From NCBI GenBank assembly GCA_964016885.1, contig OZ024754.1:10168001-10232000 (forward strand): a stretch of 64,000 nucleotides of DNA, in the 5' to 3' direction. This DNA is from Eledone cirrhosa. Its lineage: Eukaryota. The notes beneath the pieces are model-generated. The model made no database searches and had not been told where the DNA came from. It saw only the letters and a program-made list of their open reading frames with translations. This document shows positions 20,375-53,518 of the stretch, piece by piece. Position 1 is the first letter of the stretch; each line of letters starts with the position of its first letter. The translations under genes and the position numbers were made by a program.

Positions 20375-20895
20375 ATCATCATCATCATCATTTTACGTCC
20401 GCTTTTCCCTGCTTGCAAGGGTGGGACGGGTCTTATTCAGCACTGCATCTCTCCACTCGTCACGGTCCCTCGTCATCTCCACCGTGAGCTTCAATGATCT
20501 GAGGTCTGTTCTCACCACCTCCGCCCATGTTTTTATATAAATATATATATATATATATCAACATCATCATTTTACGTCCGCTTTTCCCTGCTTGCAAGGG
20601 TGGGACGGGTCTTATTCAGTACAGCATCTCTCCCCTCGTCACGGTCCCTCGTCATCTCCACCATGAGTTTCAATGATCTGAGGTCTGTTCTCACCACCTC
20701 CGCCCATGTTTTTATATAAATATATATATATATATCATCATCATCATCATCATTTTACGTCCGCTTTTCCCTGCTTTGAAGGCTGGGACGGGTCTTATTC
20801 AGTACAGCATCTCTCCACTCGTCACGGTCCCTCGTCATCTCCACCATGAGCTTCAATGATCTGAGGTCTGTTCTCCCCACCTCCGCCCATGTTTT
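20375..20895 (-). mobile_element. Three tandem copies of the 3' end of an RTE-clade LINE
   Basis: Unit 1 encodes KTWAEVVRTDLRSLKLTVEMTRDRDEWRDAVLNKTRPTLASREKRT*, the typical RTE ORF C-terminus (W..V..DL...DR..WR). Units 2 and 3 differ by a few substitutions. Each about 180-bp unit ends in (TGA)n. Confidence 0.85.
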
Positions 20896-20914
20896 TATAT
20901 AAATATATATATAT

Positions 20915-21253
20915 ATCATCATCATCATTTTACGTCCGCTTTTTCCCTGCTTGCAAGGGTGGGACGGGAACTGATGCTGGCTTGATTTCTACGGCTGGAT
21001 GCCATTCCTAACACCAACCTCATTTACAGTGAGTGCTGGGTGCTTTTTTTTTTGCCGTGGCACCTCCACGACCACTTTGCAGTGGAATGATAGCGACCCC
21101 AGTGCCTATCATCTAATTTCTACAGCTGAGTAAACTGGAGCAATGTGAAATAAAGTGTCTTGTTCAAGGAAACAACACATCACCCGGTCTGAGAATTGAA
21201 TTCACAACCTTTCAATTGCAAGGCCAATGCTCTAACCACTAAGCCATGTGCCT

Positions 21254-21257
<4 letters not shown>
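20915..21257 (-). mobile_element. SINE family B, full length
   Basis: Minus strand: A box TGGCTTAGTGG, B-box-like GAATTCAATTC, CORE-like block, GGTTGGTGTTAGGAATGGCATCC and the RTE tail with (TGA)n. Confidence 0.92.
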
Positions 21258-21310
<53 letters not shown>

Positions 21311-21529
21311 TAAATGCCACCGACAAATGCGAGAAAGTACTTCAGAAAGTTAACCGGGATTTTAAAAAAAACTTTCAAATAAAGTTAACAAAGGACTTAT
21401 TAGATCTACATAGCAAAATTATAAAATTATAACATTGTAAAATTATAAAATCAAATTGTTATAGAATACTAAGTGAATTGTTATAGAATACAAGTGAAAT
21501 CATTCTTTTCCTTTTTACAAATATATATG

Positions 21530-21876
21530 CATCATCATCATCATTTCATCATTTCATTTTACGTCCGCTTTTTCCCTGCTTGCAAGGGTGGGACGGGAAC
21601 TGATGCTGGCTTGATTTCTACAGCTGGATGCCCTTCCTAACACCAACCTCATTTACAGTGAGTGCTGGGTGCTTTTTTGCCGTGGCACCTCCACGACCAC
21701 TTTGCAGTGGTATGATATGGACCCCAGTCCCTATCATCTCATTTCTACAGCTGAGTAAACTGGAGCAATGTGAAATAAAGTGTCTTGCTCAAGGAAACAA
21801 CACATCACCCGGTCTGAGAATTGAACTCACAACCTTTCGATTGCAAGGCCAATGCTCTAACCACTAAGCCATGTGC
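21530..21876 (-). mobile_element. SINE family B, near full length
   Basis: Nearly identical to 20915-21257 and 51200-51530. Confidence 0.92.
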
Positions 21877-21942
21877 ATACATACATATATATATACACAT
21901 ATATACATACATACATACATACATGTATGTATATATGTATGC

Positions 21943-23258: not shown

Positions 23259-24927
23259 TATATATAGTATATATATATATAGTATATATAGTATATATAT
23301 AGTATATATATATATACTATATATATATATATATAGTACATATATATATAGTATATATATATAGTATATATATATATATATAGTATATATATAGTATATA
23401 TATATATAGTATATATAGTATATGTATATATAGTATATATATAGTATATATATATATATATATATATAGTATATATATATAGTATATATATATACATAGT
23501 ATATATATATAGTATATATATATACATAGTATATATATATACTATATATATAATCATTGATGATGACATATACACACACGTGTGTGTGTGGGGGGGGGGG
23601 CACAATCTTTTGGCAGATATTGGCAGCCAATCGAAGAAACTGGGTTATATTCTATGATTGATAGTTTAATAGAAAACTGAATGCCAGTGATATGTTAGCT
23701 ATGAAAACCTATACAGCACACTTGTTGACTTAAATTGTTGACAACAATATATGACAACTGAAAGCTATAAGAATTCAGCCTCCCAAGATAACATATATGG
23801 CGCCCCTTTAGGGGATTCCACCATTTTCCTGTGAAACCACAGGAAATTCTTAATGTAGTTATTGAAATCCCTCCAGGTTATATTCAATATTACAATATCT
23901 TAAGGCAGTAGATGTTGACACAGGAGAATTAAAGTCAGATTAAGGCACTACTGCCTCTCGTGTTCCTGAGTTCAAATCTCAAAGGTTATGGAGGTGAAGG
24001 TGTCTTCTGCACACTTCATACAGTAAACATTTTAATATAATTTCCTTCAACTACATCAACACCACAACGTTTTATCAAAGAAAATAGAGATGTAATTATA
24101 CTTAACAAAACATCAACAGTAGTCGTAATTCTATTTTTGGTTAACACTGTAAAATATTTGACATTATTTTGGTTTTCTACAATTCAAACTTTAAAAAAAC
24201 AACAACATTTTAACACTTCTGTTACCATGACAAATAAAAGTCACTGCCTATGATTTTCAAATCATTTTGAAAATAAAGAATTTGCAGGTATTTATATATA
24301 GCTAACCATCATATAAGTTTTTACATATAATTATGATGGAAGGTTTTCATGCAGATATTTATATATTTTAACATAAATAGATTTGTGTCATAGCTGAAGG
24401 AACAGTTTCGGGCAATTTGGTACCAAAACAGCTAAATCTTCCATATATAACTCATCATCATCAAAAATATTTTTACATCAGATTTTTCATGTTAGCATGG
24501 GTCTGACATGACTTGATATTTGTGGCAGTTGTTTATCTATGATCGGATACCTTTTAACACAGTTTATTTATAAAGTATGGTATACACCTCTCACACCTTC
24601 ACTGAAGCAATTAGCTGTGGGATGTATTTTTGTTTATGCAAGACATAAACAAATGTCACTATTAATGTAAATTGATGAGACCAAGCATGCTAACAAGGTA
24701 TTTTTAATGTATATTGAGATTGTGTGTGCGCGCACATGTGTGTGTGTTAAGAATGAGAGATTAAAGTCTCATTTTATTCATGTAAAAGCATAGAATACTC
24801 AAACAGGTGCCACCAATGGTAACATAGCACTACTCACAGGCTAACAGTTTGTGTGTATATATTGGGTCGTCAAGTATGGAATTTGTAGAAATTTTTGAAG
24901 AAAAAAAAACAAATTTCTACAAATATT

Positions 24928-24993
24928 TATTTCATTATACATATTTCAAGGGCCACCAGAGCAAACTATGGTGCGCTTTCATCAGATAAAATA
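24928..24993 (-). ncRNA. Minimal type I hammerhead ribozyme (inverted copy)
   Basis: Exact reverse complement of 25229-25294. Confidence 0.75.
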
Positions 24994-25228
24994 TAATATA
25001 GGTTAGTTTTATAAATAAATATTGACATACCCTTAAAAAATGCAACCATTTTTTTCCCCTATTCCAACGGCTTAATTTAAATATACTGTTTTTAAACCTT
25101 TCCAACACTAATTTGCATAATAAACCAACAATAAATCTAATAACTCCACTATCCAGAAGATTCCAACCAAAATGGTTGCATTTTTTTAAGGGTATGTCAA
25201 TATTTATTTATAAAACTAACCTATATTA

Positions 25229-25294
25229 TATTTTATCTGATGAAAGCGCACCATAGTTTGCTCTGGTGGCCCTTGAAATATGTATAATGAAATA
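25229..25294 (+). ncRNA. Minimal type I hammerhead ribozyme
   Basis: Stem I UAUUUUAU/AUGAAAUA, core CUGAUGA (25237-25243), stem II AAGCGCACCA/UGGUGGCCCUU, GAAA (25275-25278), palindromic stem III AUAUGUAU, predicted AUA cleavage after 25286. Confidence 0.78.
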
Positions 25295-25530
25295 AATATG
25301 GTTTTATAAATATAGTTTCCATTTGTTAATATATTGTGTATTTACTCCAATAATTTGTTGAGTGCTTTATATCAGTTAAAAAAATATTTTGCTTGTTGTA
25401 TCCCAACAAATTAAATATAACCTCTACACATATATATATATTTATATATATAGAGAGAGAGAGAAGGGGGGGGGGTATTTGTGTTGGTTTTACTAGTATT
25501 CTGTCCATTAGAGATTTTACATAAGTTATT

Positions 25531-25577
<47 letters not shown>

Positions 25578-25580
<3 letters not shown>

Positions 25581-25723
25581 TTTAGTACAGCATTGACGAA
25601 ACTTTAGAATACGGCCAAGCTAGCGTATATGCATACTCGGTCTGTAGCTTGAGCACTCAGATGAGGAAAGACCCCCAGAGTAATATATACATATACATAT
25701 ATATGCATACACACACATATATA

Positions 25724-25771
<48 letters not shown>

Positions 25772-26000
25772 CACATATACACATACATATACATATATAT
25801 AAATATTTTAGTACAGCATTGACGAAGCTTTAGAATACGGCCAAGCTAGCATATATGCATAATCGGTCTGTAGCTTGAGCACTCAGATGTGGAAACACCC
25901 CAGAGTAATAACATTACGTTCAGACAGCTTAGCAAATCAGATATAGCGGTCGGCAGTCCAGCCGCATCACTAGAGCAACGAAAATACAGGACCCAGAAAA
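25578..26000. repeat. Unclassified ~105-bp element duplicated in tandem across (TA)n
   Basis: TTTTAGTACAGCATTGACGAA...CCCCAGAGTAATA at about 25580-25685 and 25807-25910. Confidence 0.8.
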
Positions 26001-33362: not shown

Positions 33363-33364
<2 letters not shown>

Positions 33365-33700
33365 ATACGATATTAACAAATGGAAACTATATTTATAAAA
33401 CCATATTTATTTTATTATACATATTTCAAGGACACCACGTTAAATTATAGATATGGTTGCATTTTTTAAGGGTATGTCAATATTTATTTATAAAACTGAT
33501 CTATATTGTATTTTGTCTGATGAAAGCACACCATAATTTAACGTGGTGTCCTTGAAATATGTATAATAAAATAAATATGGTTTTATAAATATAGTTTCCA
33601 TTTGTTAATATCGTATATTTACTCCAAATACTTGTTGAGTGCTTTATATCAGTTATAAAAATATTTGCTTGTTGTATCCCAACAATTTAAATAGAACTTT

Positions 33701-33705
<5 letters not shown>
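33363..33705 (+). mobile_element. Penelope-like pLTR remnant, second copy, with an 86-bp inverted arm
   Basis: 33363-33448 is the reverse complement of 33533-33618. The body is homologous to 25169-25430. (TA)n lies on both sides. Confidence 0.7.
33509..33573 (+). ncRNA. Minimal type I hammerhead ribozyme, paralog of 25229-25294
   Basis: Stem I UAUUUUGU/AUAAAAUA, CUGAUGA (33517-33523), stem II AAGCACACCA/UGGUGUCCUU, GAAA (33554-33557), stem III AUAUGUAU. Confidence 0.8.
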
Positions 33706-33752
<47 letters not shown>

Positions 33753-34339
33753 AAAGACAAATACATTGAATTTGGTTAAAACTGTGCCTTTCTTAACTTG
33801 ATAGCATAGCATGTTCTTATTTTACTTAATGTTTAATCCAGCTCTTATTGCTCTCCCTCCAAAAATCCCAACGTTCCCAGAAATTGTCCAGGGGATCTGT
33901 GTGACCCTCATTAAGTATATCTCTGCTATCTATATAACTAGCACACAAAACCGGGTCAAGCTGCAACCACTTCAATCATGCTGTAAATATTTTGTTTTAT
34001 GTTTCGGGGTTTGTTCTTTACATCCATCTTCAGCTTCCCTCCCATACATCAAACCCATTCTATCAATAATTGTTTCTACTTTTGGCACAAGGCCAGCAGA
34101 TACCCAGTACATTACTGGTACTTTATTTTATCGACCCCCGTAAGGATGAAATATAATAATGTACTTTCTCTTTCATTCTTACAGTTCATGAATCACTATC
34201 ATAAAGCTAGGTATGTATGTATGTGTGTGTACATATATATATACACACACACACACACATATATATATATACACACATACATACATGTATATACATACAT
34301 AGATATAAATACAGACTAAGATCCAAAGAGGACTCCTTA

Positions 34340-34382
<43 letters not shown>

Positions 34383-34516
34383 TGTGTGTGTGTGTGTGTA
34401 TAAGTATATATAAACCCGTAGAGCAAATAGTTATTAATTCAGATTAAAAGTTTAAGCAAAACGTGTTTGCTTTAAGCAGAAATCTTTTGCTTAAACTTTT
34501 AATATGTACTAATAAT

Positions 34517-34750: not shown

Positions 34751-34858
34751 ATAGTATAACTATGCATTTAGGTATCTATATATGTGTGTGTGTGTGTATG
34801 CAAGTTTTAAACATATATCTGTACACATAGATACATATGTGTGCAGATGTATGTGTAC

Positions 34859-34945
<87 letters not shown>

Positions 34946-35018
34946 CATATATATATATGTATATATTTATTTATTTATTTATACACACGGAACTAAATTT
35001 ATTAGGTGCTCTTTCTCA

Positions 35019-35049
<31 letters not shown>

Positions 35050-35357
35050 ACAAAATACACCCCCCACCCACCCCATCCACACCGCCCCTTTCAATGTAAA
35101 GTTATGTTGGTGCCACAACATCCAGGCCGAAACAAATGAGATCGTGTAGGTGTCACGACAAAATAATGTGGCCGTGTAGGCAACACGGTAAAAACCTCCC
35201 AGCCCCACACTGTAAATGTGGTTGGTGTTAGGAAAGGCATCCAGCTGTAGAAAACCCACCAGACAGTCCTATGCAAGCAAGACAACCACTCTTGCCTCAA
35301 GTGGGAAAACTCCCGTCCAAACCCATGGACGTTAAACGATGATGATGATGATGATGA
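35050..35357 (+). mobile_element. RTE-dependent non-autonomous element (family C)
   Basis: Close paralog of 22900-23258. Confidence 0.8.
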
Positions 35358-53079: not shown

Positions 53080-53518
53080 TGTTTTATCAAAGCCCCTAAA
53101 ATAATTGTGTTTCTGAGAATGAATAGCTGTTTATATAGATCTATAAACACTGGAGTAATGAGAGAGGTAAATAATTGATTCTACGTTTGCAACAAGGCCA
53201 GCAATTATACCAGTGTATTACTGGTACTTTATTTTATCAACCCCATAAGGGTGAAAGGCAAAGTTAACCTCAGCAGGATTTTCTCATAATAATTGTTTCT
53301 ACCCTTGGCACAAGGCCAGCAATTATCCCAGTGTATTACTGGTACTTTATTTTATCGACCCCGTAAAATAAAGTACCAGTAATACACTGGCATAATTGCT
53401 GGCCTTGTGCCAAAAGCAGAAACATATTTACCTCTCTCATTACTCCAGTGTTTATAGATCTATATAAACAGCTAGCCAGTCTCAGAAACACAATTATTTT
53501 AGGGGCTTTGATAAAACA
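53080..53518. repeat. Fold-back inverted duplication spanning flank sequence and SINE A tails
   Basis: 53080-53237 is the reverse complement of about 53363-53518. The central SINE tail turns back on itself around TCGACCCCG (about 53355-53362). Confidence 0.9.

Follow-up and report, generated by a model that had tools for sequence, protein, structure and literature searches.

Opposite-strand hammerhead motifs in Eledone cirrhosa lie in a head-to-head pair of repeat copies that is probably a Penelope-like element insertion

A stretch of 64,000 nucleotides of Eledone cirrhosa DNA, hereafter called the window, contains at 24923-25299 an inverted repeat (locus 1) in which a hammerhead ribozyme motif is present in each of the two arms, on opposite strands. 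The question raised by this locus is whether such an arrangement represents a functional switch, in which the ribozyme is silenced by the antisense arm of its own transcript, as had been proposed in a preliminary description, or whether it reflects the manner in which a mobile element was inserted. Global alignment of the reverse complement of 24923-25052 with 25169-25299 indicated that 130 of the 131 columns were identical, with one indel in a T run (T6 vs T7) and no substitutions, bearing out the earlier statement that the arms are reverse complements save one homopolymer indel. The feature was, moreover, found to be bigger than first described, in that the 116-nt spacer between the arms and about 130 nt to the right of them are parts of the same repeat, and the whole forward copy extends from 25053 to about 25428, where it ends in (TA)n. 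The spacer was counted as element sequence because a diverged contig (run X2, record 10) covers 25105-25213 on the forward strand unbroken, with 19 differing letters, and because raw reads of run X9 span 25169 and show many variants, supported from 15-37 start places. Locus 1 thus consists of a forward copy and, head to head in front of it, an inverted copy of part of its interior. The features of locus 1 and of a second copy of the repeat in the window are as follows.

24881..24924, no strand assigned: perfect hairpin at the left junction, 14 bp with a 16-nt loop, one of four such non-simple hairpins in the 64 kb
24923..25052, reverse strand: inverted second copy with a truncated 5' end, corresponding to forward-copy positions 25169-25299
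24928..24993, reverse strand: type I hammerhead motif of the inverted arm, predicted cut after 24936, without the outer 13-bp stem I helix
25049..25055: T run within which the inner end of the inverted arm is ambiguous
25053..25168, forward strand: spacer, belonging to the element as the 5' part of the forward copy and rarer owing to 5' truncation
25169..25428, forward strand: pLTR-like core of the forward copy, right end approximate, then (TA)n
25205..25312, forward strand: type I hammerhead with extended stem I, core at 25237-25243 and 25275-25278, predicted cut at 25286/25287
25340..25428, forward strand: one-sided, tail-like 3' extension of about 85-90 nt, between the short and the long end of the family
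33363..33448, reverse strand: inverted arm of the second copy, identical at 86/86 bases to 33533-33618, without CUGAUGA, beginning in (TA)n
33449..33703, forward strand: forward arm of the second copy, with an intact hammerhead at 33509-33573 and a right end at about 33703 in (TA)n

The second copy (33363-33703), which had been overlooked in the preliminary description, is located 8 kb from locus 1 and has the same head-to-head layout with other breakpoints; the core at 25169-25428 is 89% identical to 33453-33728. The arms are identical within each locus (130/130 aligned bases at locus 1 and 86/86 in the second copy), whereas a comparison of the two loci over the arm interval gives 12 differences in 126 aligned bases (about 10%). 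Therefore, both arms of a locus are likely to have been copied at insertion from a single template or from sibling templates that were nearly identical. In both of the window copies, the inverted arm is nested within its forward counterpart, for which the chance expectation is one in four. In the second copy, the inverted arm is broken off inside stem II, as a result of which it has no CUGAUGA, and it carries the short end of the family while the forward arm carries the long end, so that the extension is one-sided.

Three of the four junctions in the window are in (TA)n. The left junction of locus 1 is not; it comes about 40 nt before the short end of the family would be reached and adjoins the 14-bp hairpin, which could have been templated during repair. 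A candidate TSD at this locus is a direct match of 11 nt, with a single mismatch, between 24916-24926 and 25423-25433; it may be a TSD or else the element end, its right copy also aligning with the end of the second copy. The left flank was also considered as an old remnant of the family and was rejected, as 255-281 of 300 shuffles reached its alignment scores. Separately, a 6-bp mini-hairpin at 25164-25178 has a loop that coincides with the inner end of the inverted arm of the first copy and with the 5' end of the forward arm of the second.

A descriptor scan of the window identified three type I hammerheads, at 25229-25294 and 33509-33573 on the forward strand and at 24993-24928 on the reverse strand, in all three of which an inner stem I of 8 bp is combined with CUGAUGA, GAAA and AUAUGUAU-A. 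When the window was shuffled chunk-wise with dinucleotides preserved (50 shuffles), the loose descriptor gave 0.04 matches per window and the strict form (stem I of at least 8 bp and stem II of at least 3 bp) gave none. No family of Rfam, hammerheads included, reached the gathering score across the window, and the 12 weak Rfam matches up to E 10 within 24700-25500 included no hammerhead, the best being a miRNA model that matched the hairpin. In the forward copy, stem I is 26 bp (8 + 5 + 13, with two bulges), stem II consists of 3 bp, a C.C mismatch and 6 bp, and stem III has 2 bp and a loop of 4 nt. The inverted arm ends at the equivalent of 25299, so that the 3' strand of the outer 13-bp helix is absent and its hammerhead is complete for the core and the inner 13 bp only. 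The earlier claim of a complete type I hammerhead in each arm accordingly stands as to the core and the 8-bp stem I but not as to the outer helix of the inverted arm. Likewise, a palindromic stem III is present as had been claimed, but the palindrome of locus 1 requires two G-U pairs and is weak, at -2.2 kcal/mol as a homoduplex. The 66-nt motif by itself folds no better than shuffles (z -0.10), and the folding z values were -1.7 for 25200-25320 and -3.1 for the second copy. No pile-up of ends was observed at 25287 in the DNA sequencing runs compared with the repeat.

With respect to dimers, a sense and an antisense copy are unable to form a hammerhead dimer within one RNA. Dimer dependence is not necessarily strict for the locus 1 hammerhead, since an axolotl motif with a similar stem III (2 bp and a tetraloop) is given in a passage of PMC7229834 as showing 22% cleavage per hour as a monomer and far more as a dimer.

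The repeat belongs to a very abundant family. Four of the 11 listed sequencing runs were compared with 25053-25412, three of them from one sample (6634, 5823 and 6159 matching contigs) and one from a second study (30133 raw reads). In run X1, the summed word depth is 3-11 thousand in the spacer, about 1 million over the core (a rise of more than 100-fold) and 3.7 million at 25293-25304, compared with a depth of about 4-27 for single listed contigs, although this summed depth is not a copy number. From the two insertions in 64 kb, we infer that there are, roughly, tens of thousands of copies. A steep 5' boundary of depth is found at about 25182-25192, approximately 15-20 nt upstream of the outer stem I, where variants also affect the depth; four listed opposite-strand joints start there, plus one at 25192, and the boundary may be an RNA 5' end or an RT stop. 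Many family copies end at about 25332-25341 and continue into (TA)n, as indicated by loose ends behind 25327-25341, and others reach the long end.

Opposite-strand joints account for 9 of the 15 joints listed out of 26, at varied positions, and five of the nine were in raw Illumina reads. These joints bear on the possibility that locus 1 is an assembly or read fold-back artefact, which we regard as extremely improbable. Such an artefact would be in line with the perfect arms and with the absence of the locus's own joint (25053 to 25169-72) among the 15 joints listed, but it does not account for the opposite-strand joints in raw short reads of an independent study, for the distinct unique flanks on both sides or for an arm that is nested in the element instead of mirroring the flank. 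A later origin of the inverted arm, independent of retrotransposition and through DNA repair or template switching at replication, is also very unlikely, as is later homogenisation of the arms. The atypical left junction with its 14-bp hairpin could be explained in this way, and so could the identity of the arms in a copy that bears family-rare letters at 25157 and 25379 (each less than 1% of run X1 depth); however, the layout is present in both window copies and at many other loci, and in the second copy the arm reaches the short end of the family, in (TA)n.

The variation within the family was then compared with the predicted fold. No substitution was found in the catalytic core among the 40 listed of the 104 family variants, and the 25282 G>A change, which accounts for 42% of run X1 depth, makes the stem III palindrome perfect. 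Judged by eye from loose ends before 25270-25275, stem II subfamilies still pair, with CCATA/TATGG in 13790 reads and TACCA/TGGTA in 38 contigs, compared with CACCA/TGGTG at locus 1. The two window copies differ at 13 positions over 25200-25320, comprising six unpaired, four pair-keeping and three pair-breaking differences, and none of the 13 falls in the 13 bases of the catalytic core. The pair-keeping changes include A-U to G-U and G-U to A-U in stem I and one G-C to A-U in stem II, and the three pair-breaking differences disrupt two predicted pairs at the stem II tip. Because the differences between copies and within the family avoid the core and the stem II variants keep pairing, the ribozyme is likely to have been under selection in the source elements.

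A separate question is whether the inverted repeat at locus 1 acts as a functional switch, with the ribozyme silenced by a dsRNA trap and activated by internal initiation or by A-to-I editing. Two premises of this proposal were upheld. The antisense arm is made first on either strand, as given by the head-to-head geometry, and capture is predicted in read-through RNA of both strands, where the hammerhead fold would cost 104.9 kcal/mol (forward) and 102.8 kcal/mol (reverse), compared with 4.5 kcal/mol in the forward copy alone. The duplex is also predicted to form co-transcriptionally, with 21 of the first 22 right-arm bases paired with the left arm, and a passage of PMC5625713 describes lizard Penelope copies as heavily A-to-I edited. 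However, capture is a consequence of any such inversion. The inverted arm of the second copy has no core and the joints vary between loci, the identical arms point to a young insertion rather than a conserved one, and no host gene was found among the 206 window frames searched against Pfam. Reactivation by A-to-I editing is unlikely, since editing would presumably also alter the catalytic-core adenosines contained in the same duplex. A functional self-silenced switch is thus highly improbable. The presence of two whole cores at locus 1 is an accident of where synthesis stopped, because the inverted arm of the second copy is without CUGAUGA and the joints elsewhere are at many positions. A sigma-70 promoter scan gave four sites against 5.4 expected, with a bacterial-type model that is not relevant to an animal genome.

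By analogy with published insertions, the locus appears to behave like a PLE insertion, and as a single locus it has an ordinary, known layout. The head-to-head pair is very probably a dead 5'-truncated PLE insertion, or a non-autonomous derivative moved by a PLE, with the reversed arm made during integration. According to passages of PMC8557442, an adjacent inverted 5'-truncated copy, a one-sided tail and a (TA)n bias are standard in PLE insertions, and a passage of PMC3846280 describes inverted pLTRs placed head to head in rotifer Penelopes, together with antisense small RNAs and a hypothesis of self-priming. The likeness to Penelope/Poseidon, Neptune and Nematis, as far as these passages describe them, comprises the inverted truncated copy in 2/2 window copies, strong 5' truncation, one-sided extension, AT-rich or (TA)n targets and a terminal-repeat hammerhead, and this layout supports the connection drawn in the preliminary description with Penelope-like pLTRs and a partial inverted copy of them. 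The family has two 3' ends; its extension is one-sided in the second copy but measures about 85-90 nt, compared with the 30-40 bp of the PLE tail in print. Locus 1 further differs from EN+ PLE insertion units in that no ORF was found and in that a 116-nt spacer is present in place of a short junction palindrome.

Membership in this class rests on layout, as an RT/GIY-YIG parent was not found. Among the 206 window frames (entropy-filtered, at least 55 aa) compared with Pfam there were no RT or GIY-YIG matches, the locus copy being truncated, and no credible host-gene match; two DUF3915 matches at 34755-35136 are probably low-complexity. The spacer frame had no match among longer proteins and none in 1.84 billion representatives. 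Two pattern scans of metagenome contigs gave no matches. In the open frame that runs through the spacer (25053-25253), 4 of the 10 listed family substitutions are silent as counted by hand, and a +1 insertion at 25090 is common.

The hammerhead itself shares some features with those of known PLEs. Dual hammerheads on opposite strands, 100-700 bp apart, in Schistosoma mansoni are ascribed to truncated PLEs in a passage of PMC4209133, and locus 1 has the same arrangement within the same distance range, its cores being about 250 bp apart. A palindromic 15.2-16.2 with loop 3 and a long helix II, as in the min-HHRs of that passage, are present at locus 1. In the min-HHRs, by contrast, helix I is 4-5 bp, one base is left unpaired ahead of stem II (between 9 and 10.1) and G10.1-C11.1 is present, none of which is seen at locus 1, where stem I is 8 bp, extended to 26, and A10.1-U11.1 follows CUGAUGA directly.

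Features shared with retrozymes raise the alternative that the family consists of non-LTR retrozymes, that is, tandem units of 170-400 nt processed to circles, with the locus as a solo copy with an inversion, which is unlikely overall. Passages of PMC7229834 on the retrozymes of Mytilus and on axolotl HHR_Amex2 describe a 2-bp helix III, a tetraloop, low GC, a unit of a few hundred bases and a very high copy number; here, the distance between the 5' boundary near 25185 and the long end would give a unit of about 240 nt, with low GC and the 2-bp stem III and tetraloop of invertebrate retrozymes. Some joints that link the 3' part with 25181-25305 are listed without their kind and may be tandem, and a passage of bioRxiv 10.64898/2026.07.22.740005 argues that retrozymes derive from pLTRs. 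Against this, unlike the retrozymes described, neither window copy is tandem and no head-to-tail joint is among the 15 listed, the common 3' ends run into (TA)n, and the element extends for 130 nt or more on the 5' side of the boundary. Since a retrozyme would itself probably depend on PLE enzymes, this alternative is compatible with the PLE insertion that we prefer.

For a PLE insertion, the reversed arm could be made as follows. A GIY-YIG nick at an AT-rich site would prime reverse transcription inside the RNA, the first cDNA would stop at 25053, and the second strand would be made from the same template. We lean slightly toward a second strand formed when the cDNA end folds back and pairs through 3-4 nt of A/T microhomology, which the junction T run offers; priming at the second nick, with the same RNA or a sibling of it as template, is almost as probable. 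Fold-back and double priming fit alike, since the arms are nested in both window copies and microhomology is available, and since two-nick priming of an anole PLE in vitro, with both strands nicked and extended and two internal RT starts, is described in a passage of PMC11167929. In the source elements, the ribozyme would cut tandem transcripts, best as a dimer, and at locus 1 the read-through RNA would trap it in a 130-bp duplex as a by-product without a role.

A further-reaching possibility is that the inverted arms are fold-back copies, that nearly every insertion plants a perfect hairpin, and that tens of thousands of these feed ADAR and Dicer with dsRNA specific to the family and mute their own ribozymes as a built-in brake on the element, which we consider improbable. 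If it were true, the family would settle the origin of inverted pLTRs, since under fold-back every inverted arm should lie within its own forward copy and match it exactly. The single locus matters little, and the family is of modest value as a very abundant one with an unusually long stem I and rewritten stem II subfamilies. Its many inverted junctions should, nevertheless, permit a genome-wide test of fold-back against double priming for inverted pLTRs. The family itself is apparently undescribed, as no description was found in the literature, although the supplements of the cited papers may list it.

The window also contains other repeats. A SINE-like segment of about 87 nt at 34065-34151 has more than 10 copies at 82-94% across the window. 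Recent local tandem duplications are present at 20378-20918 (three copies of about 180 nt, 95-97%), at 21048-21317 and 21673-21942 (270 nt, 91%) and at 25533-25675 and 25759-25901 (143 nt, 90%). Perfect hairpins are located at 53328-53390 (27 bp with a 9-nt loop) and 34443-34503 (19 bp with a 23-nt loop).
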